From the NCBI GenBank assembly GCA_048571215.1, contig CP182352.1, positions 1 to 64,000 on the forward strand: a stretch of DNA of 64,000 nucleotides, written 5' to 3'. Made by a program: the position numbers and the translations under genes. Position 1 is the stretch's first letter; the number at the start of each line of letters is the position of its first letter. The notes beneath the pieces were generated by a model, which saw only the letters and a program-made list of their open reading frames with translations, did not search any database and was not told where the DNA came from. This stretch comes from Halarcobacter sp. GTDB lineage: Bacteria > Campylobacterota > Campylobacteria > Campylobacterales > Arcobacteraceae. Of the stretch, positions 48,183-64,000 are shown piece after piece.

Positions 48183-48515
48183 TTATATAGTTATATTTTC
48201 TAAAAATTCTATTTCATTATCAATTACTATAATTGCATCAATACAAAAACTAACATGTAGTTTTTTGCTTTGTAAGTAGTAATCAACACTTCTTTTTAGT
48301 TTTGATAGTTTTGAAGGGGTGATATTGTTTACAGCTATTTCATAAGTCTCTGCTGATTTAACCTCTATGAAATGGTAAGTTTCATCTTTTTTACAAATGA
48401 TATCTATCTCACCTAATTTTTTGGCGTAAAAGTTTTGTTCAAGTATTTTAAAACTTTGTGAGTTTAAAAACTCACAAGCTTTGTTTTCTGCTATATTACC
48501 TTTAGATCGGCTCAA
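48183..48515 (-). CDS. YraN family (UPF0102) nuclease
   Basis: GNIAENKA, GEIDII, HFIEVK, CIDAI. Confidence 0.92.
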   Translation of the reverse strand: MSRSKGNIAENKACEFLNSQSFKILEQNFYAKKLGEIDIICKKDETYHFIEVKSAETYEIAVNNITPSKLSKLKRSVDYYLQSKKLHVSFCIDAIIVIDNEIEFLENITI

Positions 48516-50583
48516 TTTCCACTCTAAGAGATTTAAATCTTGCAGTCATAATAAGTTCATCTGCTTCATCCCCAAAGATAAAGTTAACCTTTGAACTAGC
48601 ATGATGGAAGGTTGTAAAAAGTGTACCTGTTTTTATGGTTTTTACATATTTGACTGGCATAATAGCAGTTTCTCCATATTGGGTTCTCATAATAATATGA
48701 TCACTTCCAATTCTTTTTTTGTCATCTATTGAAGCTAAGACTACATCTTTGTCATATCTTGAATTTAAAGCTTCACTTTGAACTGTTTGGGCTGCATTGT
48801 TATAATGAACTATTGTTCTTCCTGTTGTTAGATAAAACTCATTTTTAGCAAACTCTTCATTGTTTACTAATTTTTTTACCTGCTCTCTTAGTTGGTATTG
48901 ATGATAGATAAATTTGCCTTTTCCATCTTCTGTTCTAAATTGATCTATATGTAAAATAGGGGTATCATCTTTTTTAATAGGCCATTGCATACCTCTATTT
49001 CTATTTTTTGATAGTTTATGGTAGGTTGCACCTGAATATCTAGAACCAACAGCTTCTTTTGCTTCGTTCCAAACATCTTCACTGTTTTCATATACAAATT
49101 CACCATTTATTTTATTTTCAATATCTTTTAAAACTTCCCAATCATCTGGTAAATCTGTTTCAACCAAAGGTTGAGATAGGTGAAGTCTTCTCATGGCATT
49201 TACATAAACACCAGTTTTTTCATAAGCTGATTTAACACCAAAAATTATATCTGCCATTTTTGAGATTTCATTCATAAATAGTTCATTTGAGATGATTAAC
49301 TCTAAGTTAGCTAAACCTTTATGAACTTTATTTTGATTTGGATGGATATGGGCGATATCTTCTCCCATCACATACATAGCTTTAACTTTTCCTTCAATCA
49401 TCTCATCAATTAGCTGGGGAGTCATAAGTCCTATCTCTTTTGGTACTTGATAATCTGGGTCAAAATATGGTAAACATCCTGTATCACAGGCACCTTGAAC
49501 ATTGTTTTGACCCCTTAGAGGCATAAGACCAGCTCCTGTTTTTCCGATATTCCCTGTTAGCATTGCAAGATGTGTTATAGCCATAACAGCACAACTTCCA
49601 TCAAGGTGTTCAGTTATTCCAAGTCCCCAAAAAAACATAGATTTTTTTGTAGCATAAAGTCTTGCTACTTTTGGTATTTGTTCTGCAAGTTCCTCATAAC
49701 CTTTTATTTTTTTCATATATTCAGGGTTTGCAAACTCATCATTTAGAATCGAGTCTTTGTACTCTTCAAAACCTGTACATCTTGTATCTATAAACTGGTT
49801 ATCATATAGTTTTTCATTTAAGATTACATATGCCATCATATTTAAAACTAGTAAGTTTGCTTCATATGGGATGATTAACTGTTCTCCAAATTTTGAAAGT
49901 TGGATTTTTCTTACATCTATAACTGTCAAACTTGCAGTTTTTGCCCTTGCAGCCTTAATAATCCTATTTGCCACAATAGGATGAGCTTCAGTTGTATTTG
50001 AACCCATTACTATAATATTTTCAGCCTCAAAAATATCATCATAAGGATTAGTTGCAGCACCTTCCCCTATAGTTGTTTTCATCCCTTTAAGTGAAGGTGA
50101 GTGACAAACCCTAGCACAGTTATCAACATGGGGAGAATCCATAGCAATTCTTACAAATTTTTGAAACATATAAGAGCTCTCACAAGAGGTTCGTGCCCCT
50201 CCCATCCCACAAAAAGAGTGTCTTCCATATTTCTCTTTTATCTCCATTAGTTTCCATGCTGCAAGGGAAGTTGTGAACTCATATGGAGCTTCAAAATAGT
50301 TTTCATCAAAATCTTTTAGGGTTTTAGCTCTAGCTTTAAGCTCCCTTGGTAACTCTTCGAGATTTTTTTCTATAAAGCTTTTTTTGACTCTAGCATTTCT
50401 AATTCTTTGTTCAGAGTGAACAAAATGGTAGCCTTGGGCCCCTTTGATACAAAGTTTTCCTTGGGATACATATCCATCGTTTTGGGCATAGATTTTTACA
50501 ATCTTATTATCTTCAACTTGAGCTGTTATATCACATCCTACACCACAATAAGTACAAACTGAGTTTATATCAGAAGAGTGCAT
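48502..50583 (-). CDS. Molybdopterin oxidoreductase, formate dehydrogenase H-like (Cys-type)
   Basis: CTYCGVGC...LCIKG [4Fe-4S] site, DNCARVCHSPS, GSNTTEAHPI, PLRGQNNVQGACD, LTTGR; ATG at 50583 just after the thiS stop. Confidence 0.88.
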   Translation of the reverse strand: MHSSDINSVCTYCGVGCDITAQVEDNKIVKIYAQNDGYVSQGKLCIKGAQGYHFVHSEQRIRNARVKKSFIEKNLEELPRELKARAKTLKDFDENYFEAPYEFTTSLAAWKLMEIKEKYGRHSFCGMGGARTSCESSYMFQKFVRIAMDSPHVDNCARVCHSPSLKGMKTTIGEGAATNPYDDIFEAENIIVMGSNTTEAHPIVANRIIKAARAKTASLTVIDVRKIQLSKFGEQLIIPYEANLLVLNMMAYVILNEKLYDNQFIDTRCTGFEEYKDSILNDEFANPEYMKKIKGYEELAEQIPKVARLYATKKSMFFWGLGITEHLDGSCAVMAITHLAMLTGNIGKTGAGLMPLRGQNNVQGACDTGCLPYFDPDYQVPKEIGLMTPQLIDEMIEGKVKAMYVMGEDIAHIHPNQNKVHKGLANLELIISNELFMNEISKMADIIFGVKSAYEKTGVYVNAMRRLHLSQPLVETDLPDDWEVLKDIENKINGEFVYENSEDVWNEAKEAVGSRYSGATYHKLSKNRNRGMQWPIKKDDTPILHIDQFRTEDGKGKFIYHQYQLREQVKKLVNNEEFAKNEFYLTTGRTIVHYNNAAQTVQSEALNSRYDKDVVLASIDDKKRIGSDHIIMRTQYGETAIMPVKYVKTIKTGTLFTTFHHASSKVNFIFGDEADELIMTARFKSLRVEIEPI

Positions 50584-50584
50584 C

Positions 50585-50785
50585 TTAACCACCACCAACA
50601 AATTGTAGAAGTTCTAGTTTGTCGTCATTTACAGGTCTGTACTCTTTCCAGTTCTCTTTTTTTACTATATCCATGTTAACAGCAGCTGCCATAACTTTAT
50701 CTTCAATTTTTAGTGAAGTGATAACTTCTTGTAGAGTTATACCCTCTTGAAAATCTTTAGATTCACCATTTATAATTAGAGTCAT
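50585..50785 (-). CDS. thiS: Sulfur carrier protein ThiS
   Basis: 66 aa, IINGE, AVNMDIV, C-terminal FVGGG. Confidence 0.9.
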   Translation of the reverse strand: MTLIINGESKDFQEGITLQEVITSLKIEDKVMAAAVNMDIVKKENWKEYRPVNDDKLELLQFVGGG

Positions 50786-52373: not shown

Positions 52374-53294
52374 TTAGTATAGTTTTTTATTTACTATATT
52401 TTCTTTTTTATTGTAAAGATTTATAATACTTCTTTCATACTCTTGTTCAAATATTGAAAAACCTCTAATATCTTTAGGTACTTTTAAGTCTAAAACTTCA
52501 AATACATCTAAACCATTTTTTAATCCATAGTTTATATTTTTTCTAATTGTTTTTAGATATTTTATATTTTCTTCTATAGCTTTTTTATTTTCAAAAACCA
52601 AACCATGCCCAGGGAAACAAAGTTTAAAATCTATATTTTTTAATTTATTTAAGCTTTCAATCCATTTATCCAAATTTGCATGGGGCGTTGCTAAAGCTCT
52701 ATGGTTAAATACTAAATCAGAAGCATATAAGATTTTTGTATTTTCATCATAGATTACTAAATCATCTTCAGTATGACCACTTAGATAAATAAAGTGAAGT
52801 TTATATCCATCAAAGTCCATAACTTTTTTATTAAGTATCTTATCAACTTTTTTTACTGAGGTATCAGTCATTGCCGAACCCACTAAATTTACAAGGTTTT
52901 CAATATATAAATTTCCATTTGTTTCAATCTCATCTGCTGTAAATTGTGTAGCAAAGATAGTGCTATCTTTAAAGGCATTATTTCCTAAAAAATGATCTGG
53001 ATGATGATGGGTATTTATCACATATTTTATAGGTTTGTTTGTAACTTTTGCAATAGCTTTTTTTAATTGTTTTCCATAATTAAAAGAGCTTCCTGTATCT
53101 ATTAAAATGACACTTTTATCAGTTTCAATAAAAGCAGTATTTGAAATATTTCCTCCATTTTTATTAGAAAAATACTCCTCCTTTCCATAGAAATAGTAGC
53201 TATTATTAGAAAGTTTTATGGGTTTTAATTTATAGTTAAACTCTTTTGATAATAAAGGTATAAAACAAATTAACAGGCTTATTAAGAGTCTCAT
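52374..53294 (-). CDS. Secreted MBL-fold zinc metallohydrolase (quinoprotein relay system type)
   Basis: Signal peptide, NGGNISN, LIDTG, THHHPDHFLGN, GHTEDD, PGHG; next to a SoxYZ-like gene. Confidence 0.85.
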   Translation of the reverse strand: MRLLISLLICFIPLLSKEFNYKLKPIKLSNNSYYFYGKEEYFSNKNGGNISNTAFIETDKSVILIDTGSSFNYGKQLKKAIAKVTNKPIKYVINTHHHPDHFLGNNAFKDSTIFATQFTADEIETNGNLYIENLVNLVGSAMTDTSVKKVDKILNKKVMDFDGYKLHFIYLSGHTEDDLVIYDENTKILYASDLVFNHRALATPHANLDKWIESLNKLKNIDFKLCFPGHGLVFENKKAIEENIKYLKTIRKNINYGLKNGLDVFEVLDLKVPKDIRGFSIFEQEYERSIINLYNKKENIVNKKLY

Positions 53295-54031
53295 TTTGTA
53301 TCCAATAAAAACTCATTTGCATCAATATCATAGAATTTTAGTTCATACTCTTTTGAAGCAGTTTTTGTTTCAAATATAAATCTAGGATTTTCACTAATTG
53401 GTGAATAAGTTTTGATTGTTGCTAAAGTCTTATCTTTAGTTTTTAGAACAATTTTATTGATATAAAAGGCACTATTACCAAATACTAAACCTGTTTCCAT
53501 AGGGTGAAAAATAGAACTTTTTATTCTATATGCATCATCTTTTTTAAAATATGTGATTTTACCCTTTCCTAAAAGTTTGTCAAAATCAGTATTACTTGAA
53601 GCTACACTTGCAACTGCACATCCTCCTCCAAAACTTTTGATATTGTTACTACCAATATGCCAAACCCCTTTTTCATCTAATACTAAAGCTCGAAGGGGTG
53701 TCTCTTGAGCTACTCTTATATTTAAAGAGATAAAAGGCAAAAGGTTTGTTAAATCCATATCTATAATTTTTGGAATAGGATTTAAATCAGCAAATAAAAT
53801 CATTCTTTTTGCATCTTTTATTTTTTTGGCATTGACTAAAATAGGAACCTGTACAGGGTTATCTGCAAAGCTTGGTACCTTTACGATAACATTTTTATCA
53901 TCAAAGATATACTCTTGATCCTTTATTATCTGTTTTATAATATCCTCAAATGTTGGAGATATGATGGGATTTTTAGCATATAAATTATGCGAAAATAAAA
54001 AAGATACTAGTAACAAGAGTATATGTTTCAT
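53291..54031 (-). CDS. Quinoprotein dehydrogenase-associated fused SoxYZ-like carrier
   Basis: Signal peptide; SoxY-like half ending GGGCA; SoxZ-like half with HPMETG and ISENP. Confidence 0.85.
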   Translation of the reverse strand: MKHILLLLVSFLFSHNLYAKNPIISPTFEDIIKQIIKDQEYIFDDKNVIVKVPSFADNPVQVPILVNAKKIKDAKRMILFADLNPIPKIIDMDLTNLLPFISLNIRVAQETPLRALVLDEKGVWHIGSNNIKSFGGGCAVASVASSNTDFDKLLGKGKITYFKKDDAYRIKSSIFHPMETGLVFGNSAFYINKIVLKTKDKTLATIKTYSPISENPRFIFETKTASKEYELKFYDIDANEFLLDTK

Positions 54032-54041
54032 GATAATTCCT

Positions 54042-54911
54042 TTATTGTGTTCTTGAAATTGGTGGTAGATAATCTACCCCATATTTTTCAAATATTTTTT
54101 TAATATTGCCTTTTTCATATTGTTGAGAGATAACTCCATCAATATAATAACTAAGTGGTTTATAACTAATTTCTACAGCTGTTGCCAAATCCCAGTGATT
54201 TCTTGCCACTTGTGGAATCGAATCACTTATGTAAATTTTGTCTTTGTTGTGTTTATAATCTAGATAAAATTCTAATTGAGATTTTAATCCTGCAATTGCA
54301 TCAAGTTTCCCATTTTTGAAATCTTTTATTGCATCTTCAAAATGGAAGTAGTGTTTAACATTTTTATTAATAAGTCCTCTGGCAAAAGCTGATAAGTGGG
54401 CATCTGGAAGCGTATCAAGTTCAACACCAACAGTTTGATATGCAAATATACCTAGTGTTGTGATTTTAGGGATTATTTTTTTATGAGTTGCAATCACCCA
54501 TTTTTCACTATGGTATGGTCCTTTTATTGAGACCATTTCAGTTTCAAGTTCACCTGTTTGTTTATCTGTAAGTCTCATATAATCATAATCATATGGGATT
54601 CTAAACATCATATCAGCTTTATTTTTATGAACTAAATTACCTTTCCAAATTACATTTCTTAAATCATCAGACAATGTTTCATCTGATCCTGTTAAATACC
54701 ATTTTGCTTTTACCCCTAGTGATTTAGCAATGATTTTTCCAAGATCAACATCTATCCCTTTTAGTTTCCCTTTTTCTTCAAATGAATAGGGTGGAAAGTC
54801 TTTATATACAGCAATCATAATATAACCACTGTCTTTAATCTCCTCAATACTTCGTGCATTTGCAAAGACTACTAAAAGAATAAATATTGTAGATAATTTA
54901 AGAAGTTTCAT
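54042..54911 (-). CDS. Periplasmic binding protein, family 3, of the type associated with quinoprotein dehydrogenases
   Basis: Signal peptide, VYKDFPPYS, GIDVDLG, DDLRNVIWKG, RIPYD; follows pedF. Confidence 0.8.
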   Translation of the reverse strand: MKLLKLSTIFILLVVFANARSIEEIKDSGYIMIAVYKDFPPYSFEEKGKLKGIDVDLGKIIAKSLGVKAKWYLTGSDETLSDDLRNVIWKGNLVHKNKADMMFRIPYDYDYMRLTDKQTGELETEMVSIKGPYHSEKWVIATHKKIIPKITTLGIFAYQTVGVELDTLPDAHLSAFARGLINKNVKHYFHFEDAIKDFKNGKLDAIAGLKSQLEFYLDYKHNKDKIYISDSIPQVARNHWDLATAVEISYKPLSYYIDGVISQQYEKGNIKKIFEKYGVDYLPPISRTQ

Positions 54912-54912
54912 C

Positions 54913-55332
54913 TTATTCTAAACCAGCTTCTATTCTTTGAGATACTATATATGTTCTAATAGCCCAAATAGCTTCTTGACTTAATACTTCTGCAAATGAT
55001 GGCATATAAACATTACCATTTCTAGTTACACCACTTAAAACTTTACTAATAAAATAAGCATCTTCATCAGTTGGTAATTCTCTTAAATCAGGAGCAATAC
55101 CACCTGAAATAACATCTAAACCATGACATCTTGCACAGTTTTCACTATAACCTATTTTACCTACTTCTTGAGCTCTAGCATTTTCTTGTTTATATGGATT
55201 TTCGTCAAACCATTGATCTCCAAATTGTTTTAATCCTGTTGTGTCAACTTTTTGAGGTGTTACACTTCCATGTCCAAAAGCAAACACTGTTGCAAATAAA
55301 GTTGCAAAACCTAATTTTTGAATTTTATTCAT
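54913..55332 (-). CDS. pedF: Cytochrome c550, PedF/ExaB type
   Basis: Mature N-terminus HGSVTPQKVDTTGL, heme motif CARCH, GGIAPDLR, YMP axial Met, QEAIWAIRTY. Confidence 0.9.
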   Translation of the reverse strand: MNKIQKLGFATLFATVFAFGHGSVTPQKVDTTGLKQFGDQWFDENPYKQENARAQEVGKIGYSENCARCHGLDVISGGIAPDLRELPTDEDAYFISKVLSGVTRNGNVYMPSFAEVLSQEAIWAIRTYIVSQRIEAGLE

Positions 55333-55381
55333 ATTCTTTTCCTTTGAGATTTTTTTTAGATTTTGGAATTATATATGCTTT

Positions 55382-55399
55382 ATATAGCCTGATTATAGC
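55382..55399 (-). promoter_or_regulatory. Direct-repeat box 1 (pedF promoter)
   Basis: Minus strand GCTATAA-TCAG-GCTATAT, then 8 nt, then TATAAT. Confidence 0.8.
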
Positions 55400-55420
55400 G
55401 AGTAAAAAGTTTTGAATATT

Positions 55421-55438
55421 GCTAAATTGAGGCTATAA
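55421..55438 (+). promoter_or_regulatory. Direct-repeat box 2 (ABC operon promoter)
   Basis: GCTAAAT-TGAG-GCTATAA, then 8 nt, then TACAAT. Confidence 0.85.
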
Positions 55439-55478
55439 ATCTGTTATACAATTTGAGAATAATTTTTAAGGATTGAAA

Positions 55479-56453
55479 ATGAAAAAACATATTATTCTAT
55501 TTTTTATATGTAGTTTAGTTTTAGTTTTTGCTAATGATAAATTAAAAATTGGAGTCTTATCTTATGGAACAGTTAATTGGGAATTAGATGTTTTAAAACA
55601 TCATAATTTAGATAAAAAGTATGGCTTTGATTTAGAGTTAGTAAATATAGCTTCAAAAAATGCTCAATCAATAGCTTTATTGGCAAATGAAGTAGATATG
55701 ATAGTTCATGATTGGGTTTGGATAAATTTACAGAAAAGTAAAAATAGAGATTATATGTTTTATCCCTATTCAAAAGCTACAGGTACATTAGTTGTAAATC
55801 AAAATATAAAAGATTTTGCAGATTTAAAAGAAAAAGAACTAGGAATAGCTGGGGGAAAGTACTCTAAAACTTGGCTTTTATTTAAGGCTTTTTATGAAAA
55901 AAAATATCAAAAAGATTTTCAAGATGAGGTTTCTGTCTTATATGCATCCCCTTCAATTTTATATTTGAAGATGTTAAACAACTCTTTAGATGCAGCAATT
56001 AATTTTTGGCATTTTAATTCAAAGTTGGAACCAAAAGGGATTAGACCACTTATCTCTATAAAAGAGGTTTTAAATGAAATAGGAATTAAATCGGATATAC
56101 CTTTTATAGGTTGGACGTTTTCAAAGAAGTTTGCTATGAAGAATAAAAAACTTATAAACTCTTTTATAAGTGCAAGTCATGAAGCAAAAGAGATTTTAAA
56201 AAATAGCGATGAAGAGTGGAATAGAATAAAAAGAATAATGAAAGTAAAAGATATAAAAACTTTCAATGCATTAAAAAACGGATATAAAAAAGGGATAATA
56301 AATCATCTTGATAAAACAACAATTGAAGATATGAAAAAAGTTTATACCATATTGGCAAAACAAAGTGGTTTTAAATATGTGGATAAAAACAGCACTTTAG
56401 ATGAAAGTATTTTTTGGAATTTTAATAAAGTAAAGTTAAAAGCAAATGAATAA
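55479..56453 (+). CDS. ABC transporter substrate-binding protein (TauA/SsuA-like fold)
   Basis: Signal peptide, GTVNWEL, DWVW, AINFWHF; ATG 55479 after AAGGA. Confidence 0.85.
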   Translation: MKKHIILFFICSLVLVFANDKLKIGVLSYGTVNWELDVLKHHNLDKKYGFDLELVNIASKNAQSIALLANEVDMIVHDWVWINLQKSKNRDYMFYPYSKATGTLVVNQNIKDFADLKEKELGIAGGKYSKTWLLFKAFYEKKYQKDFQDEVSVLYASPSILYLKMLNNSLDAAINFWHFNSKLEPKGIRPLISIKEVLNEIGIKSDIPFIGWTFSKKFAMKNKKLINSFISASHEAKEILKNSDEEWNRIKRIMKVKDIKTFNALKNGYKKGIINHLDKTTIEDMKKVYTILAKQSGFKYVDKNSTLDESIFWNFNKVKLKANE

Positions 56454-57183
56454 TACCCAATCTAAAATATGTGCTATTTTAATATTTGTAATAATCTGGC
56501 AAGGAGGATCTTTAATGGTAGATTCAAGCCTTTTCCCAAGTGCGATGGATGTGCTTAGGAATCTTTATTATAATATCTTTGAAGATGATTTATTACATCA
56601 CCTTTTTATTACTTTGTATAGGGTATTTATCTGTTTTTTTATAACTTTGTTTATAGGGATGATAATGGGTTTATTAATGGGTTTTTATGAGGAGTTAAAT
56701 GAGGTTTTAGATTTTGTATTGATTTTGGCTTTAAATATCCCAGCACTAGTAACAATAATTATTTGTTATATTTGGTTTGGGCTTACAGATTTTGCAGCTA
56801 TTTTAGCTGTAGTTATAAATAAAGTTCCCATAGTAATAGTAAATATTAGAGAGGGAACTAGGGCTATGGATAAGAAATATAGCGATTTTGCAAAGGTTTA
56901 TAAATTATCACAAAAAGAGGTTTATAAAAATGTGTATCTACCCCAATTATTCCCTTATATAATGGCTACAGTTAGACTTTGTTTATCCTTGATTTGGAAA
57001 ATTGTTTTAGTGGTTGAACTATTAGGAAGAAGTGATGGTATTGGTTTCCAAATCTCGCAGTTTTTTCAGTTTTTTGATATCACATCAATCTTATCATATA
57101 CAATATCTTTTGTTACTGTGGTGGTTTTAATAGAAAGTTATATATTAAAACCTTTAGAATTAAAAACTAAAAGATGGAAATAA
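56446..57183 (+). CDS. ABC transporter permease (TauC/SsuC-like)
   Basis: TLYRV, LNIPALV, LPQLFPY, WKIVLVVELLGRSDGIG. Confidence 0.88.
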   Translation: MNNTQSKICAILIFVIIWQGGSLMVDSSLFPSAMDVLRNLYYNIFEDDLLHHLFITLYRVFICFFITLFIGMIMGLLMGFYEELNEVLDFVLILALNIPALVTIIICYIWFGLTDFAAILAVVINKVPIVIVNIREGTRAMDKKYSDFAKVYKLSQKEVYKNVYLPQLFPYIMATVRLCLSLIWKIVLVVELLGRSDGIGFQISQFFQFFDITSILSYTISFVTVVVLIESYILKPLELKTKRWK

Positions 57184-57184
57184 G

Positions 57185-57883
57185 ATGATAAGTATAAATA
57201 TTAATGAGAAGCGTTTTAATGAAACTGTCATTTTAAAAGATCTAGATTTTTCTTTAAACAAAAGTGAATTTATATCTATAATTGGACCATCAGGTTGTGG
57301 TAAATCAACCCTACTTAATATAATCTCTTTTTTAGATAATGATTATGTAGGGAAGATTAAAGGGGAGTTTTCAAATATATCTTTTATGTTTCAAGATCAT
57401 AGACTTCTTCCTTGGCTTAGCGTAAAAGATAATCTATTGTTGGTTTCAAAAACAAAAGATGAAAAAGAGATTATTGATTTATTAGAACTTATAGGTTTAG
57501 AAAATATATTGCATGAATATCCTAATAATCTATCAGGGGGGATGTTAAGACGTGTTTCTTTAGTTAGAGCTTTTATCAACAAACCCGATTTGATACTTTT
57601 AGATGAACCTTTTATCTCTTTAGATTATCCAACTTCACAAGCTTTAAAAAAAGAGCTTTTAGCTTTTTATAATAGGTTTAAAGCAACTATAATTTTAGTT
57701 ACACACGATATAAGTGAGGCTATATTATTATCAAATAGGATTTTGTTTTTTAGTAAAAATCCAGCAAAAGTTTTATTAGATTTCAAAAATCATGATAATC
57801 AAGTTTTTAATCAAAAAAGAAATGATGAGATAAAAAACAAAATTTTAGAAAAATATCCAAAAATATTAGAAGGAAAATTATGA
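57185..57883 (+). CDS. ABC transporter ATP-binding protein (TauB/SsuB-like)
   Basis: GPSGCGKST, FQDHRLLPW, LSGGM, LLDEPF, VTHD. Confidence 0.92.
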   Translation: MISININEKRFNETVILKDLDFSLNKSEFISIIGPSGCGKSTLLNIISFLDNDYVGKIKGEFSNISFMFQDHRLLPWLSVKDNLLLVSKTKDEKEIIDLLELIGLENILHEYPNNLSGGMLRRVSLVRAFINKPDLILLDEPFISLDYPTSQALKKELLAFYNRFKATIILVTHDISEAILLSNRILFFSKNPAKVLLDFKNHDNQVFNQKRNDEIKNKILEKYPKILEGKL

Positions 57884-58290
57884 TTACATACAAAAAAAGC
57901 ATAGCTATAGCGCTATTATTAACAGCCTTAAACCTAGATGCTCAAAAAATACAGGTTTTTAAACCAATTGCAAGTACTTGTCCACAAAATTGGTTGGAAG
58001 ATATGAAAGAGTTAACTAATGAAGTTGAAATTGTAAATTTAAAAGATGTAAAAAGATTAAAACATGAGATGAAAATTCCCTATGAATTACGCTCTTGCAA
58101 TACCTCTATTATGGATGATTATATATTTGAAGGAAATGTACCTAAAGAAGCTATGAAAGAGTTTTTAAAAAACCCTGTTAAAGATGCTTTAGGACTTAGC
58201 TTACCAGCCTCAGAAAATCTTAAAAAAGAGAAAACTGTATATATACTTTTTAAAAACAATACTTATAAAGTTTTTGGAAAATACAAGTAG
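57880..58290 (+). CDS. Secreted DUF411/CopG-like protein with degenerate metal ligands
   Basis: Signal peptide; IPYELRSCNTS, YIFEGNVP, GLSLP align with the DUF411 SCHTA, EGHVP, GLAVP motifs. Confidence 0.65.
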   Translation: MITYKKSIAIALLLTALNLDAQKIQVFKPIASTCPQNWLEDMKELTNEVEIVNLKDVKRLKHEMKIPYELRSCNTSIMDDYIFEGNVPKEAMKEFLKNPVKDALGLSLPASENLKKEKTVYILFKNNTYKVFGKYK

Positions 58291-58310
58291 CTTTAAGCTA
58301 TTTGTATTTT
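58278..58310 (+). terminator. Hairpin at the end of the ABC-DUF411 operon
   Basis: AAAATACAAGTAGCT...AGCTATTTGTATTTT. Confidence 0.6.
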
Positions 58311-58373
58311 ATTAAAAATAAACAATAAAATATTAGATAAATAAGTTATTAAATTTTTTATTTTACCCATATA

Positions 58374-58391
58374 GCTATAATCTAGCTATAT
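58374..58391 (+). promoter_or_regulatory. Direct-repeat box 3 (porin promoter)
   Basis: GCTATAA-TCTA-GCTATAT, then 8 nt, then TATAAT. Confidence 0.75.
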
Positions 58392-58452
58392 CAAAAAGTT
58401 ATAATTTTAATCAAGCTTTTATTAGTTTGACAAAATTATATAGGGGAAAGAA

Positions 58453-59655
58453 ATGAAAAAAAGGCTAGGGTTAATTAGTTTAGTTGCATCAATTGCAGTT
58501 ACATCTATGCAAGCGGGAGAGTTAGATTTAATCTCAGATTTAAAGATTAGTGGAGATGCAAGAGTTAGAGGAGTTTCAGTAAAGGGTGATACTGCAACTT
58601 CAGGTTCAACAGCTGCTACAAGACAAGATAAACAAAAATTTGAGTCAAGACTTAGATTAAATCTTGATTTTAAAGTAGATGATAGTGTAAGTATACATAC
58701 TAGAATTGTTGCAGATAATAATGCATGGGGAAACAATAATAATGATACTTTTACTTGGGATGAAGCTTATGTTGTTGTCCCATTCAATCAAGATAAGTTT
58801 TTATTAGCTGGTAGAATAGAAGATAGTTATGGTACTAAATTTTATGGTAGTAATGGTGATCCTATTGATTTAGCTTTAGTGGGATATAACCCAAAACCAA
58901 ATATTTTATTATATGCTTTTGATTATAAAGCAGTTGAGGGGTCTGTTGTAGATCAAGGTTCAAGTCTAGGTTTAAGTAATACTGGAAATGGGGACTTTGA
59001 CGCATACTCTATTGGTGGGCAAATCACTATTGATGAGATGTTAATGGGTGGTAGATATGTTTATTTACAAAATAATACTGCAATTGGTGGTGGCGCTTAC
59101 GCAGATGCAAATAGCCATATGTATAATGCTTTTGCCCTTGGGAAATATGCAGGACTTGATATTCAAGCACAAGTTGAAAAAAGAACAGGGGATAAATACT
59201 CTGGTGGTATTGTTGATGAAAAGATGTTTGGTGCATATCTAAATATAGCAAAAGATTTTGGAGATTTCAAAGCAGGACTTTCTGCTGTTAAAACTGAAAA
59301 GGGTTATGTTTCTGGCTCTGAATTACCTGTGTCATATTTAACTAATGATGATTTAGGTATGGCTGCACTTGGTAGAGTTGGAGCTTATGGAGATACTTCA
59401 CTTTATGCAGCAAATTTTTCTTATTCTCCTAGTGCAGATTTAACTTTTGAAGCAAATCTTGCTCATCATTCTATTGATAATGCAAGTTTTAATAGTATAA
59501 ATAAAGATTTAGAAATAATGGAATATGATGTAGGTTTATCTTATAATCTTACAAAAAACACTCAATTATCTTTAAGATATGCACAGGGTAATTTTGATGA
59601 GGGGAATTTAGAGGATCTATCAGTAGTAGTTGGTGCAGTAGAAATTAGTTTTTAA
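58453..59655 (+). CDS. Outer-membrane beta-barrel porin
   Basis: Signal peptide, first strand ISGDARVR, alternating amphipathic strands, terminal VEISF. Confidence 0.85.
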   Translation: MKKRLGLISLVASIAVTSMQAGELDLISDLKISGDARVRGVSVKGDTATSGSTAATRQDKQKFESRLRLNLDFKVDDSVSIHTRIVADNNAWGNNNNDTFTWDEAYVVVPFNQDKFLLAGRIEDSYGTKFYGSNGDPIDLALVGYNPKPNILLYAFDYKAVEGSVVDQGSSLGLSNTGNGDFDAYSIGGQITIDEMLMGGRYVYLQNNTAIGGGAYADANSHMYNAFALGKYAGLDIQAQVEKRTGDKYSGGIVDEKMFGAYLNIAKDFGDFKAGLSAVKTEKGYVSGSELPVSYLTNDDLGMAALGRVGAYGDTSLYAANFSYSPSADLTFEANLAHHSIDNASFNSINKDLEIMEYDVGLSYNLTKNTQLSLRYAQGNFDEGNLEDLSVVVGAVEISF

Positions 59656-59665
59656 TCTTAAAACA

Positions 59666-59698
59666 TAGTAAAAAGATTCATGATGAATCTTTTTACTA
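59666..59698. terminator. Bidirectional terminator
   Basis: TAGTAAAAAGATTCA-TGA-TGAATCTTTTTACTA perfect inverted repeat between convergent genes. Confidence 0.8.
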
Positions 59699-59701
59699 AA
59701 T

Positions 59702-60166
59702 TTAAAAAATAACCTCTTCAATAATCTTTTTTATATTTTCATTTATCTCTTTTGCCATTTTTTCATCTTTTTTCAAAGGTTTAAATTTCATATATGAAAT
59801 GTAAAAGAAGTTTTGATTTTTTGTTTTATAAACAGCAAGTGAAAATGGACAAAAAAGAATATTATCTGGATTTTCAGCTAAAAGTCTAAAGGTAACAGAA
59901 CTTTTGCAAAAGGCAAGTTTTTTACTAAATTCTAAGTTAGATTTTTTATCTATAAGTTTTCCAATATTTTTAGTAAGCTTTGCAAAATCACCTTCATAGA
60001 CTATTTTATATCCATTTGCAAGTAGTTCATTTTTTAAAAGTAAGTATGTAGTTTGAATACTCTCTTGGCTTAGTTTATATTTTACAAAATAATCAGTCTC
60101 ATAAACTTCAATTTTAGCAAACAGCGTAGAAAAAAGTAAAATTATAAGTATAAGATATTTTATCAT
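59702..60166 (-). CDS. Secreted DUF302-like protein
   Basis: Signal peptide, LAFCKS, ILFCPFSLAVY, ISY. Confidence 0.7.
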   Translation of the reverse strand: MIKYLILIILLFSTLFAKIEVYETDYFVKYKLSQESIQTTYLLLKNELLANGYKIVYEGDFAKLTKNIGKLIDKKSNLEFSKKLAFCKSSVTFRLLAENPDNILFCPFSLAVYKTKNQNFFYISYMKFKPLKKDEKMAKEINENIKKIIEEVIF

Positions 60167-61311
60167 TGTTCACATCTCATCTCAAACTTTGCAACACCTA
60201 AGGTATCTAAATCTGTTAGGGGATGTAAGAATCCAACTTGTGGGGAAGTTGATATTAGTGCTCTTGGTTGAACTAAGGCTATTGGGGTTCTTAATTGACC
60301 ATTAAAGTCTCTAAAAGAGAGCTTTCTTCCCATATATGCACCAATTTCAAACTCTTTTGAACGTATAAATTTTATATTTTTTTCCAATGAAGCTGTTTGG
60401 GTTTTTGCAATTGAACTAATAATTGTTCTAATAGCAACCCAGTTTGAAAAATCTTTTTGTTCCATCCATCTTTTAGCAAATTTTTCAAATCTGCTTTGCA
60501 TTTGTGCAGCTCCCCAGGCTTCTATTACTTTATGCCATTGTAAAGGTTTAAGTCCTTGAGTTCCAGCTATTGGTCTAGGAAGCCAGGTATTAAAAGATAA
60601 AAACTCACCAAAATCTCCATAAAAATCTGCCACCATTACAAGATCATAATCGCTAGCTTGTGTAAATGCTGGAAATTCAGCTGTTGCTTTTCTTCTAATA
60701 TCACTATTGTTTTCCCAAACTTTTTCTTTAACAATAGAAGCACCAAATTTTTTGATTGACTTTTTCATATCCTTTTTTATCTCAATATCTTTTGGATTTG
60801 TTCCACTAATCAAAAAAATCTTTTTAAAATTTCGTTTTACTAAAAACTGAACTAGTCCATCATAAAGCATACTATTACTAGGAATTGTATGTATAAAGTT
60901 TTGTTTACAATAGTCTTTTCTAAGATTTGTATTAAGACTGCTTGCATTTATAAGTAAGGCTTTTGAAGATAATTTAGAATTGATTAGTTTTTTTAGTAAT
61001 TTAGTTTCAACATTTAGTATAATATATGAGTTCCCTTCATTTATAAACTTATTAAAAGCTTCAATAAGTTCATTTTCATCATAAGATATTTTTTCAATTA
61101 GATTAAAATGTTGGTTTAGAAATCTTGCACTTTTATTACTATCTTTTACTGCAAGTCTTGCACCTTGTATTCCTAAATCTTTTGGTTCTTCAATTACATT
61201 TGAAAGTACGGGTGGTTTTTTAATTTTTTGTTCTAGGTATAAAATATTTACATCCAAAGTTTGTGCACTTAAAAAACTTGTTAATAAAAATAAATAGATA
61301 ACTAATCTCAT
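60163..61311 (-). CDS. ABC substrate-binding protein of PQQ-dependent alcohol dehydrogenase systems (branched-chain-type fold)
   Basis: GARLAVKDSNKSARFLNQ, HTIPS, ADFYGDFG, WLPRPIAGTQGL, WGAAQMQSRF, SPQVGFLHP, LDTLG; ATG 61311 with signal peptide and AAGGGA RBS. Confidence 0.87.
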   Translation of the reverse strand: MRLVIYLFLLTSFLSAQTLDVNILYLEQKIKKPPVLSNVIEEPKDLGIQGARLAVKDSNKSARFLNQHFNLIEKISYDENELIEAFNKFINEGNSYIILNVETKLLKKLINSKLSSKALLINASSLNTNLRKDYCKQNFIHTIPSNSMLYDGLVQFLVKRNFKKIFLISGTNPKDIEIKKDMKKSIKKFGASIVKEKVWENNSDIRRKATAEFPAFTQASDYDLVMVADFYGDFGEFLSFNTWLPRPIAGTQGLKPLQWHKVIEAWGAAQMQSRFEKFAKRWMEQKDFSNWVAIRTIISSIAKTQTASLEKNIKFIRSKEFEIGAYMGRKLSFRDFNGQLRTPIALVQPRALISTSPQVGFLHPLTDLDTLGVAKFEMRCEQ

Positions 61312-61351
61312 AGTATCCCTTTTAATTGATTTTAATAAGTATATTAAAGTT

Positions 61352-61369
61352 TTATAGCCTGAATTTAGC
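61352..61369 (-). promoter_or_regulatory. Direct-repeat box 4 (SBP-DUF302 promoter)
   Basis: Minus strand GCTAAAT-TCAG-GCTATAA, then 8 nt, then TATACT. Confidence 0.85.
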
Positions 61370-61381
61370 AAGAATTACCTT

Positions 61382-61399
61382 GCTAAACTGAGGCTATAA
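61382..61399 (+). promoter_or_regulatory. Direct-repeat box 5 (beta-propeller/ABC promoter)
   Basis: GCTAAAC-TGAG-GCTATAA, then 8 nt, then TAGAAT. Confidence 0.85.
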
Positions 61400-61440
61400 A
61401 GATGGTATAGAATGGCATAAATAAAAAATTGGAGTGGGAA

Positions 61441-62400
61441 ATGAAAAAATTGATTTTATCTGGAGTTCTAATTTCAAGTGCACTTTTTGCCGATACAATT
61501 TATGTATCAAATGAAAAGGACAATACAGTAAGTGTAATTGACTCTAAAACAAATAGTGTTGTAAATACTATAGAGGTTGGTCAAAGACCAAGGGGTATAT
61601 TATTATCAAATGATTATTCAAAACTTTATATTTGTGCAAGTGATGATGACACTGTCCAAGTTATGGATACAAAAACAAATAAAATTTTATATAATCTACC
61701 ATCAGGAGAAGATCCAGAACAATTTGCATTAACTCCAGATAATAAAGAGCTTTATATCTCAAATGAGGATGATGCAATTGTAACAGTTGTTGATACTGAA
61801 AAGAGAACTGTTTTAGCACAAATTGATGTTGGAGTTGAGCCTGAAGGGATGGCAGTAAGTCCAGATGGTAGTGTTGCAATAAATACAACTGAAACTTCAA
61901 ACTTTTTACACTGGATAGATACAAAAACAAAAAAAATCATCCACAATACTTTAGTAGATCAAAGACCAAGACATATTGAGTTTTCCAAAAATGGGGATAT
62001 GGTTTGGGCATCAAGTGAGATTGGTGGAACAGTTATGGTTGTAGATGCAAAAACTAAAAAATCTGTTGCTAAGATAGGTTTTAAAATACCTGGTATATTT
62101 AAAGATTTGATTCAGCCAGTTGGAATAAAACTAACAAGTGATGGAAAATATGCTTTTATAGCACTTGGACCTGCTAATCATGTTGCGGTTGTTGATGCCA
62201 AAACATATAAAGTAATCAAATATTTACTTGTAGGAAAAAGAGTTTGGCAATTAGCTTTTGTAAATGGGGAGGATAAACTTTACACAACAAATGGAGTTAG
62301 TGGGGATGTATCTATTATAGATGTGCCTTCATTAAAAGTTGAAAAAAGTGTAAAAGTTGGAAGATACCCTTGGGGACTTGCTGTAATACCAAGTAAATAG
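61441..62400 (+). CDS. PQQ-dependent catabolism-associated YVTN beta-propeller protein
   Basis: Signal peptide, YVSNEKDNTVSVID, VGQRPRGI, LPSGEDPEQF, VGVEPEGM, VGRYPWG repeats. Confidence 0.9.
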   Translation: MKKLILSGVLISSALFADTIYVSNEKDNTVSVIDSKTNSVVNTIEVGQRPRGILLSNDYSKLYICASDDDTVQVMDTKTNKILYNLPSGEDPEQFALTPDNKELYISNEDDAIVTVVDTEKRTVLAQIDVGVEPEGMAVSPDGSVAINTTETSNFLHWIDTKTKKIIHNTLVDQRPRHIEFSKNGDMVWASSEIGGTVMVVDAKTKKSVAKIGFKIPGIFKDLIQPVGIKLTSDGKYAFIALGPANHVAVVDAKTYKVIKYLLVGKRVWQLAFVNGEDKLYTTNGVSGDVSIIDVPSLKVEKSVKVGRYPWGLAVIPSK

Positions 62401-62402
62401 TT

Positions 62403-63125
62403 ATGAAAGAAAATATCTTAGAGTTTAAAAATGTAAATTTTTCATATGGTAAAAAAGAGGTTTTGAAAAATGTATCTTTTAATATTAAAGAGGGTAGCTT
62501 TTTTGTTCTTCTTGGATTGAATGGTGCTGGTAAATCAACGATTTTTTCCCTTATTACAAGACTTCTAAAATTGGAAGAGGGAGAGATTAATATCAATTCA
62601 AATCCGATAAAAAACTACTCAAAAGCTTTAAAAGATATTGGAATAGTTTTTCAAGAGCCAACCTTGGATTTGGATTTAAGTGTTAAGCAAAATCTTTATT
62701 ATTATGGGGCATTAAAAGGGCTTAGTTTTAAAAAAACTATGGAAAGTGTAAAAGATGAAATAGAAAAACTTGAACTTCAAAACCATTTAGATATCCCTGC
62801 AAGAAAGTTAAATGGTGGTCATAGAAGAAGGGTTGAAATTTTAAGAGCTTTGATAGATAAACCTAAATTACTACTTCTTGATGAAGCAACAGTTGGTTTA
62901 GATTTAAAAAGTAGATTTGATATATTGAAATATGTAAAAAGTTTGGTTAAAACTCAAAATATATCAGTGTTATGGATTACTCATCTTTTTGATGAGGTTG
63001 ATGAAGAGGATTTTGTAGCTTTGATAAAAACGGGAGAGATAATTGAACAAACTACAGTAAGTGAACTTTTATCAAAACATAAACAAGAGAATTTAGTTGA
63101 TACTTTCAACTATCTAACAAGGTAG
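62403..63125 (+). CDS. ABC ATP-binding protein of the PQQ-ADH-associated system (PedB-like)
   Basis: GLNGAGKST, FQEPTLDLDLSV, LNGGHRRRVE, LLDEATVGLD. Confidence 0.9.
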   Translation: MKENILEFKNVNFSYGKKEVLKNVSFNIKEGSFFVLLGLNGAGKSTIFSLITRLLKLEEGEININSNPIKNYSKALKDIGIVFQEPTLDLDLSVKQNLYYYGALKGLSFKKTMESVKDEIEKLELQNHLDIPARKLNGGHRRRVEILRALIDKPKLLLLDEATVGLDLKSRFDILKYVKSLVKTQNISVLWITHLFDEVDEEDFVALIKTGEIIEQTTVSELLSKHKQENLVDTFNYLTR

Positions 63126-63128
63126 ATT

Positions 63129-63911
63129 ATGAATATATATTTAAATTGTCTAAAAGGGATAATATACAAAGAATTAATAAGATTTTTAAAACAAAAAAGT
63201 AGATTCTTTTCAGCACTTGTAAGACCTTTGCTTTGGTTATTTATTTTTTCAGTAGGATTTAAAACTGCTTTAGGTTTAGCAATAATTCCTCCATATGAAA
63301 CCTATATCACTTATGAAACATATATAGTTCCAGGTCTTGTGGGGATGGTTTTGCTTTTTAATGGGATGCAAAGTTCTTTAACTATGATATTTGATAGAGA
63401 GATGGGAAGTATGAAAATACTTTTAGCATCTTATATAAATAGAAATTATCTTTTATTTTGTAAAATGTTTGCAACCTCTCTTGTCTCAACTATGCAGGCA
63501 CTAACTTTTTTAGTGATTGCAAAACTTTATGGAATTGATATCTCCATTATTGCTATTATTGCTACTATTCCAGTGATAATAATCTCTTCAATTGTTTTAA
63601 ATGCTTTTGCACTTTTTATCTCTTCTGTTATAAGACAGTTAGAAAACTTTGCAACAGTTATGAATTTTGTAATTTTTCCTATGTTTTTCTTAAGTTCAGC
63701 ACTTTATCCCCTTTGGAAAATAAAAGATTCTTCACTTATTTTATTTAACATCTCATCATCTAATCCTTTTACTTATATTGTAGAAGCTATTAGGTTCAGT
63801 TTGTATTTAAAAGTAGATGAAAAAAGCTTTATAATAGTTGGTATTTCCTTGGTTATAACCCTAGTTATGGCATTTTTAGGATTTAAATCTAAAAAAGTTA
63901 ATAATGGCTAA
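63129..63911 (+). CDS. ABC-2 type permease of the PQQ-ADH-associated system (PedC-like)
   Basis: SALVRPLLWL, PPYETYITYETYIVPGL, NGMQSSL, DREMGSM, QLENFA, SSALYPLWK. Confidence 0.9.
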   Translation: MNIYLNCLKGIIYKELIRFLKQKSRFFSALVRPLLWLFIFSVGFKTALGLAIIPPYETYITYETYIVPGLVGMVLLFNGMQSSLTMIFDREMGSMKILLASYINRNYLLFCKMFATSLVSTMQALTFLVIAKLYGIDISIIAIIATIPVIIISSIVLNAFALFISSVIRQLENFATVMNFVIFPMFFLSSALYPLWKIKDSSLILFNISSSNPFTYIVEAIRFSLYLKVDEKSFIIVGISLVITLVMAFLGFKSKKVNNG

Positions 63912-63924
63912 ACTGAGGCTATAA
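63907..63924 (+). promoter_or_regulatory. Direct-repeat box 6 (promoter of the gene leaving the window)
   Basis: GCTAAAC-TGAG-GCTATAA, identical to box 5, overlapping the permease stop; then 8 nt, then TATACT. Confidence 0.85.
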
Positions 63925-63988
63925 ACCTCATGTATACTTTCGCTAAGACAAATTTTTAGTTTGTTATGAAATTAATTAAGGAGAAAAA

Positions 63989-64000
63989 ATGCTAAGCAAA
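63989..64000 (+). CDS. Start of a gene running off the window (MLSK...), product not determinable
   Basis: AAGGAG at 63978-63983, then ATG CTA AGC AAA; own promoter box upstream. Confidence 0.6.

Follow-up and report, generated by a model that had tools for sequence, protein, structure and literature searches.

What switches on the quinoprotein cluster that lies at the end of a 64,000-nucleotide stretch of a Halarcobacter sp. genome (contig CP182352.1)? The stretch, called the window here, is G000:C1:1-64000 of a 3.61 Mb genome with 28.5% GC, and coordinates above 64000 lie on the same contig. A sequence-only reading had noticed six copies of an 18-bp direct repeat in it, hereafter the box, and proposed that one activator encoded elsewhere turns on the whole cluster through them. 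We find all six 18-mers at the positions and on the strands that it had assigned, each followed after 8 nt by exactly the TAnnnT hexamer that it had listed, each aimed at the next gene, and with one box per apparent transcription unit:

55368..55399, minus strand: box 1 (55382-55399) with -10 TATAAT (55368-55373), towards pedF; score 32.9
55421..55452, plus strand: box 2 with -10 TACAAT, towards the operon of an NMT1/THI5-type ATP-binding cassette (ABC) transporter; score 34.3
58374..58405, plus strand: box 3 with -10 TATAAT, towards a putative porin gene; score 26.9
61338..61369, minus strand: box 4 (61352-61369) with -10 TATACT, towards the gene of a substrate-binding protein of the pyrroloquinoline quinone (PQQ) system; score 37.0
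61382..61413, plus strand: box 5 with -10 TAGAAT, towards the beta-propeller/pedB/pedC operon; score 35.0
63907..63938, plus strand: box 6 with -10 TATACT, towards pedH; score 36.3

The scores come from a 32-bp matrix that was rebuilt on the sites of other genomes. The best score in positions 1-52,000 is 7.3, against 26.9-37.0 for the six, in agreement with the earlier statement that the first 52 kb hold no box. The 18-mer pattern with at most two mismatches has 6 matches in the window where 0.33 are expected, and none of 100 shuffles reaches 6, a figure that is optimistic because the pattern was derived from the six sites themselves. The box had been described as a 7-4-7 repeat with an 11-bp period; the period stands, but the 4 nt are not a mere spacer, being conserved too: of 160 boxes, 133 read T-C/G/T-A at positions 8-10. 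The repeating unit is therefore 11 bp long, has the core GCTA and recurs head to tail (GCTA at box positions 1-4 and 12-15), with two units at most promoters and about four at the promoter of an aldehyde dehydrogenase gene described below. Its distance to the -10 hexamer is fixed. In other genomes, 130 distinct terminal boxes were collected from loci retrieved through protein homology, the -10 playing no part in the search; TAnnnT follows at 8 nt in 128 of them and at 7 or 9 nt in none. No TTGACA-like -35 partner for the six hexamers occurs among the 60 of 63 promoter-like sites that were listed. Direct repeats with a period of 10-11 bp in a fixed position over the -35 region are the architecture of OmpR/PhoB activator sites, and from these comparisons we are highly confident that the box would prove a functional activator site.

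OmpR-family proteins can also repress, and the box occupies the region to which polymerase binds. A repressor operator covering the -35 region is nevertheless very unlikely: a repressor does not need the invariant 8-nt spacing, no -35 consensus accompanies the six hexamers among the sites listed, and PceP, an OmpR-family regulator of Sulfurospirillum with sites in the same position, is argued to activate (PMC7755780).

The sequence-only reading had placed the activator, probably an OmpR-family response regulator, beyond the window. An OmpR-family two-component system is indeed found 8 kb past its end, divergent from an ExaC-like aldehyde dehydrogenase gene:

G000:C1 72393-73052, minus strand: OmpR-family regulator P0002
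G000:C1 73049-74944, minus strand: soluble FIST-domain kinase P0003
G000:C1 75059 and 75094, plus strand: two boxes with -10 TAAACT
G000:C1 75192-77124, plus strand: ExaC-like aldehyde dehydrogenase with DUF779 protein

P0002 matches PF00072 and PF00486 above the cut-off, and the phospho-acceptor D51 is kept in all aligned rows. The genome encodes 34 OmpR-like regulators; the recognition-helix segment TIRxExNR is kept in P0002 orthologues and differs in the 33 others. In a tree of 37 regulators, 22 fall into the supported P0002 clade (97/95), apart from an acetate-linked paralogue and far from PceP. P0003 combines FIST-N (PF08495) and FIST-C (PF10442), both above the cut-off, with HisKA and HATPase domains. 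It has no predicted membrane helices and no hydrophobic window above 1.6; therefore its signal should be cytoplasmic or membrane-permeant. No box points at the regulator operon, which is probably expressed constitutively. The proposal of an outside activator is thus borne out in that P0002 has been located and linked to a box whose geometry fits the OmpR/PhoB architecture, and the comparative data make it very likely that P0002 reads the box.

The box is not scattered over the genome. In 3.6 Mb there are nine matches above 22, all intergenic and pointing at genes, compared with 0-1 in each of five genome shuffles. The three strong boxes beyond the six precede the aldehyde dehydrogenase gene (75094), an Ndh-like oxidoreductase gene (3430479) and a FIST chemoreceptor gene (2911700), the last two being boxed in several relatives too. 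The chemoreceptor (G000:C1:2909692-2911671, L004) is soluble and one of five FIST proteins in the genome; a homologue is inserted within the ped cluster in G145 and G121, and the boxed protein may steer cells by the same signal as the kinase. Two matches at about 15 were discarded, as they lie inside open reading frames (ORFs) and equal the shuffle level. A weak box at 734518 (17.7; G000:C1:734518-735714, L325) lies 5' of eutB and is aimed away from it, at two SCO4226-like genes; we regard it as doubtful.

Conservation in Arcobacteraceae, which had been predicted, is clear: of 151 family genomes, 69 contain the strict pattern and none contains its reversed control. It is present in 65 of the 78 genomes with a kinase orthologue against 4 of the 73 without one, and in one of these four (G069) the pair is frameshifted and lies beside the cluster. 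G073 was excluded from the orthologue count as a paralogue (45%, no aldehyde dehydrogenase). PQQ alcohol dehydrogenase genes are found in 43 of the 151 genomes, all 43 of which have the strict pattern, and the pattern averages 5.3 matches per genome where there is a PQQ enzyme, 0.9 where there is just the kinase and 0.04 where both are missing. Boxes keep with their genes through rearrangements and also precede inserted calcium-type pedE genes. Single pattern matches in G012, G058 and G109 were set aside as chance or sister boxes (see below), these genomes having no regulator orthologue (best 45-52%); the match in G012 precedes a gene that is citrate-synthase-like as judged by its N-terminus.

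The sequence-only reading had also expected boxes before the PQQ alcohol dehydrogenase, pqq and aldehyde dehydrogenase genes. The first and the last have them, while in PedH clusters no separate box precedes the pqq genes, whose transcription appears to continue from pedH. The aldehyde dehydrogenase promoter scores at least 14 in all 45 scored loci beside the pair (50 kinase loci were examined, five of which were unscored with no gene start in view) and in none of 15 genomes that keep the enzyme without the pair. Across 185,579 genomes the exact pattern occurs in 99 stretches, 80 of which were listed; 76 of the 80 are titled Campylobacterales (mostly Arcobacter, Aliarcobacter, Halarcobacter and Poseidonibacter) or have the cluster genes, and the other four, outside Campylobacterales and with no related genes nearby, were rejected.

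In another reading, the box is part of the promoter itself: its half-sites would be GCTAnAAT-like extended -10 elements belonging to RpoD promoters in tandem, or would form a -35 element for an alternative sigma factor. The half-site does resemble the Campylobacterota extended -10, and an extracytoplasmic function (ECF) sigma factor of A. butzleri, ECF sigma 2, raises an aldehyde dehydrogenase transcript (PMC3445524). We consider either version extremely unlikely, given that the box vanishes with the regulator pair, that no sigma gene lies in the clusters mapped, and that the would-be last T of an extended -10 is found in the second half-site of 67 of 160 boxes, compared with 159 of 160 in the downstream hexamer.

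Target genes beyond the family suggest what the system is for. A looser pattern occurs in 41 of 301 genomes of the order Campylobacterales, with no reversed-control matches, chiefly in the families f1 (10/24), f23 (17/24) and f19 (7/24). Outside Arcobacteraceae, the pair flanks boxes aimed at a molybdenum (Mo) aldehyde oxidoreductase (L284, L286; NF045668 over the cut-off), a tungsten (W) aldehyde:ferredoxin oxidoreductase (L301) or an NAD-type aldehyde dehydrogenase (L290, L291, L162), and in some loci it is located among Mo-enzyme maturation genes. Within the family, two genomes have boxed EutB genes (G150, with three copies, and G130), and EutB, ethanolamine ammonia-lyase, releases acetaldehyde. 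In family f23, a 216-amino-acid 4Fe-4S protein, which we take to resemble the product of the first gene of the hyf hydrogenase operon, is boxed in seven genomes (L351, L359, L362, L364, L365, L371, L375). The Mo aldehyde oxidoreductase of Sulfurospirillum multivorans is strongly regulated, being 142-fold up in pyruvate fermentation (PMC6242987; the locus tags of that paper were not matched to boxed loci).

Judging by these gene identities, the common denominator of the regulon appears to be aldehyde oxidation, with the quinoprotein cluster making aldehyde from alcohol. The idea of one regulon for the quinoprotein cluster therefore needs to be recast: the cluster is boxed as proposed, but the regulon core is aldehyde oxidation, and the cluster is an add-on, because 36 genomes have the kinase without a PQQ alcohol dehydrogenase. 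Since one pair and one type of box accompany aldehyde oxidisers of the NAD, Mo and W types alike, we hold with moderate confidence that the kinase signal is an aldehyde.

Several observations weigh against this account. All of the evidence is comparative, and the relatives compared are not independent of one another. The strict pattern is missed in 13 of the 78 kinase-bearing genomes; their promoters do score with the matrix, which was itself trained partly on boxed promoters that it then scored. The 15 genomes with the aldehyde dehydrogenase and no pair belong to two genera, 13 of them to one, and so amount to about 2-3 independent contrasts. Outside the family, 41 boxed genes were examined (one from each genome plus 20 chosen regions, several assigned by N-terminal likeness to a scanned member); just 13 of them encode aldehyde oxidisers, the others being three for likely cofactor or metal supply, seven for a 4Fe-4S protein, three for chemoreceptors, eight for transporters or other proteins and seven unclear. 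In L298 and L299, regulators of the P0002 clade pair with short non-FIST kinases and the box is aimed at a TAXI transporter, which supports the regulator as reader of the box and yet means that box and FIST can part. Paralogues of the FIST kinase lie at three loci (L075, L085, L300) where the recognition helix is nearly identical and there is no aldehyde gene and no box aimed at one. Finally, a sister box with the same GCTA-7-GCTA-11-TAnnnT geometry precedes pta and an acetate-symporter operon; sister boxes occur in G000 and in all five tested genomes without the FIST pair, and score up to 17.3, above the cut-off of 14. A variant of the sister geometry is retained by 8 of 14 regulator-less aldehyde dehydrogenase promoters, reflecting either decay or hand-over to the paralogue.

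The sister system lies in the same genome, where a two-component system whose regulator is 56% identical to P0002 adjoins an acetate-type symporter (G000:C1:2390346-2394896; 2404959-2406012, L324). Together with its box it is likely to form an acetate regulon. In A. butzleri, aldehyde dehydrogenase, ackA-pta and a sodium:solute symporter are grouped under one ECF sigma factor (PMC3445524). Among so many OmpR-like regulators, this paralogue (G000:C1:2391910) could itself be the main reader of the aldehyde boxes, having a similar helix and likely targets with the same geometry; it is present, however, in all five tested genomes without the box, and C/G-A at positions 9-10 distinguishes the two elements, being found in none of 10 sister boxes versus 118 of 160 aldehyde boxes. 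A PceP-like regulator deserves mention here as PceP binds CTATA repeats with the same spacing despite a different helix (PMC7755780), but in this genome the closest homologue of PceP shares 40% identity with it and is encoded far away, and we rejected it. We likewise rejected an AraC gene found near some clusters, which is absent from the L133 and L134 clusters and 2.5 Mb away in G000. A main reader other than P0002 is, in sum, unlikely.

The earlier note knew of no description of the box. None of this box or regulator was found either in the main texts searched, which included few subscription papers, but closely similar repeats have been published. The closest published element is the CTATA repeat of PceP (RR2), the OmpR-family regulator of the organohalide-respiration regulon of Sulfurospirillum, also a member of Campylobacterales (PMC7755780). 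Its CTATA repeats are separated by 6-nt gaps, an 11-bp period, over the -35 region, and were interpreted in that paper as CTATW-N17-CTATW (PMC7755780). The pceA promoters of G325 and G355 have the same ending as the box, GCTATAA, 8 nt and TAnnnT, and score 12.7 against 26.9-37.0 for the window boxes. PceP differs in being about 25% identical to P0002 and distant in the tree, in its recognition helix and in its membrane-bound kinase, and no reductive dehalogenase match was found in G000. In Escherichia coli, the pho box of PhoB is likewise made of direct repeats in tandem, with a period of 11 bp, and 10 bp separate it from the TAN3T -10 downstream (PMC1906773). Its sequence is different, P0002 reaches 86-91 bits with PhoB models whose cut-offs are 270-296, and the box targets are alcohol and aldehyde genes, with no phosphate gene among them. 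When the box is moved 2 nt upstream to align GCTA with the PhoB core, GTCA, its distance to the -10 is likewise 10 nt. SulRS of Sulfurimonas, another OmpR-type system of Campylobacterota, uses two direct repeats over -51 to -17, but with TTACA half-sites, a periplasmic thiosulfate sensor and sox targets (PMC12936845). By analogy, the box would work like the PceP and PhoB sites while belonging to neither regulon. In short, the cis-element is real and conserved, and the regulon is well supported but of a conventional PhoB type; its possible surprise is the FIST sensor.

To our knowledge, the ligand of most FIST domains is either not known or assumed to be haem or nitric oxide. The predicted model of the P0003 FIST domain (pLDDT 89) has as its best match human FBXO22 (Foldseek E 3e-9; Z 20.8, root-mean-square deviation 3.4, 254 aligned residues), whose FIST domain has the same fold (PDB 8s7d, 8ua6) at 13% identity. 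FBXO22 is an E3-ligase substrate receptor that reacts with synthetic degraders, whereas P0003 is a kinase sensor; its C326 forms a reversible hemithioacetal with aldehydes, assisted by E362 (PMC13316043). In P0003, C305 and E337 lie near the end of the FIST domain and are invariant in 18 of 18 aligned domains. Judging by position and spacing, they may correspond to C326 and E362; the Cys-to-Glu spacing is 32 in P0003, compared with 36 in FBXO22 (numbered as in the paper) and 36 in several further FIST domains from bacteria. Among diverse FIST domains the Cys is found in 12 of 12 and the Glu in 11 of 12, and the two residues are therefore a family trait and not a mark of P0003. Sequence searches from FIST to the PDB, with an 18-domain profile and with two single distant FIST proteins, gave no significant match and did not reach FBXO22; in a protein database search, all of the matches listed (120 of 1281) were close relatives. 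We found no description of aldehyde sensing by bacterial FIST domains in the literature searched, most of it outside subscription journals. On the structural analogy, we tentatively suggest that FIST may be a natural covalent aldehyde sensor in which C305, assisted by E337, would form a reversible hemithioacetal with acetaldehyde or related aldehydes.

The same box and regulator could instead serve a FIST kinase that senses haem, nitric oxide or redox state in the manner of NosP proteins. FIST proteins have been described as nitric oxide sensors, all 59 full-length kinases share H198, redox genes (for Ndh-like, NosR-like and 4Fe-4S proteins) belong to the regulon, and the conserved FIST Cys, found in every aligned domain, is not diagnostic. 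In Pseudomonas, whose ped/exa regulon involves NosP-NahK (PA1975-PA1976, PP_2663-PedS1), AgmR/ErbR and PedS2-PedR2, nosP-nahK is discussed in terms of nitric oxide sensing rather than, or besides, alcohols (PMC12997753). That regulon resembles ours in controlling PedH/PedE, PedF, PedABC and pqq and in having a FIST protein and a soluble kinase in the cluster. The difference is that in Pseudomonas the FIST protein and a hybrid kinase are distinct proteins and a LuxR-type activator is used (PMC12997753), whereas P0003, which links FIST-N and FIST-C to a kinase as NosP systems do, is a fusion of FIST with a simple kinase and has an OmpR-type partner. Yet the Pseudomonas NosP pair itself sits within an alcohol-oxidation cluster (PMC12997753), three unrelated families of aldehyde-oxidising enzymes and EutB have been recruited to the box, and no nitric oxide-detoxifying gene is among the boxed genes examined. 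A haem, nitric oxide or redox signal is, in our assessment, possible though on the improbable side.

The box is established, as are its fixed spacing and orientation, the identities of the genes downstream of it and its joint occurrence with the regulator pair. Built on these, the reading in which P0002, phosphorylated by an aldehyde-responsive P0003, binds the box and turns on alcohol- and aldehyde-oxidation genes is likely on the comparative evidence. P0003 is predicted to sense an aldehyde such as acetaldehyde and to phosphorylate P0002, two subunits of which would occupy the -35 region in head-to-tail order and, like PhoB, recruit RpoD polymerase. The aldehyde would come from alcohol through periplasmic PedH/PedE, or from ethanolamine through EutB, and would induce both its own removal by the aldehyde dehydrogenase and more of the oxidase cluster, in a feed-forward loop. 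Our study provides a complete, testable regulon, with box, regulator, sensor and targets, for alcohol and aldehyde oxidation in Arcobacteraceae. If the proposed sensing is true, this would be the first two-component system to sense aldehydes through a FIST hemithioacetal, and a single regulon across Campylobacterales would have drawn in aldehyde oxidisers of the NAD, Mo and W types as well as an alcohol dehydrogenase of the lanthanide type. The part played by the NosP that Pseudomonas has in its ethanol cluster would then be seen differently, and a class of natural ligands would be suggested for FBXO22; target genes together with a fold bearing an aldehyde-reactive cysteine raise a broader hypothesis for a domain that occurs in organisms from bacteria to humans.

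The boxed units of the cluster carry the following genes:

52374..55332, minus strand: operon for cytochrome c-550 PedF (54913-55332), family-3 binding protein, SoxYZ-like carrier and quinoprotein relay zinc metallohydrolase (NCBIfam TIGR04494, TIGR04557, TIGR04558 over cut-off; PF00497)
55479..58290, plus strand: operon for NMT1/THI5-like binding protein, permease, ATPase and DUF411 protein
58453..59655, plus strand: putative porin (weak Porin_5 match, E 0.004)
59702..61311, minus strand: PQQ alcohol dehydrogenase system substrate-binding protein (TIGR03863) and DUF302 protein
61441..63911, plus strand: beta-propeller protein (TIGR03866), ABC ATPase (TIGR03864, just below cut-off) and PedC permease (TIGR03861)
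63989..64000 in the window, ending at G000:C1 65767, plus strand: PedH-type PQQ alcohol dehydrogenase with D-x-D motif
G000:C1 65791-65865, past the window: pqqA, followed by pqqB, pqqC, pqqD-like, pqqE and SulP genes

The D-x-D motif, an extra Asp in the metal site, marks lanthanide-type PQQ alcohol dehydrogenases. It is present in all 30 of the best PQQ alcohol dehydrogenase matches (G000:C1:63989-65767 and L007-L035), and the PedH-type enzyme shares it with its best PDB matches, 6zcw and 6zcv, which we take to be PedH structures. We found no paper on a lanthanide-type PQQ alcohol dehydrogenase of Arcobacteraceae or Campylobacterota in a search of largely non-subscription literature; one paper describes PQQ enzymes mainly from Colwellia (PMC7284936). 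PedH and the calcium-type PedE occur together in G018, G038, G061 and G074, and PedE alone in G120, G132 and G082. The ped clusters mapped hold no PedS2/PedR2-like pair. The NMT1/THI5-type binding protein (55479-57883) and the TIGR03863 protein (60163-61311) were not found in the three PedE-only genomes and are present in both PedH genomes tested; from this pattern they are candidate lanthanide uptake parts.

The pedH promoter is boxed in all 28 orthologues with upstream sequence, and in the window its box (63907) overlaps the stop codon of pedC, whose ORF ends at 63911. An inverted repeat, GACAAA, 6-9 nt, TTTGT, lies at 63945-63966, beginning at the predicted pedH start site, and is found by regular expression in 23 of the 28 pedH orthologues; because its loop length varies, it is more likely to be a 5' RNA hairpin than an operator. 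A stand-alone formate-dehydrogenase-alpha-like molybdoenzyme (519 bits, cut-off 666) is encoded near the cluster at 48502-50601, with no box, and a Mutator-family transposase, apparently in two frames, lies at G000:C1:71113-72329 (L001:11113-12329) between SulP and the response regulator. In relatives, a boxed 139-amino-acid protein without a Pfam match, not found in G000, is encoded 5' of the beta-propeller gene in many clusters (L125:12557-12976, L131, L136, L138, L139, L144). Boxes precede genes for NosR-like FMN/4Fe-4S membrane proteins in G108 and G147 (loci L115, L116, L144), and the G135 cluster has a similar-looking NosR-like gene and an ApbE gene in place of the SoxYZ/metallohydrolase pair. 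In G017 (L142:4783-13763), a block that looks CRISPR-associated from its N-termini sits within the ped cluster and leaves the boxes undisturbed.

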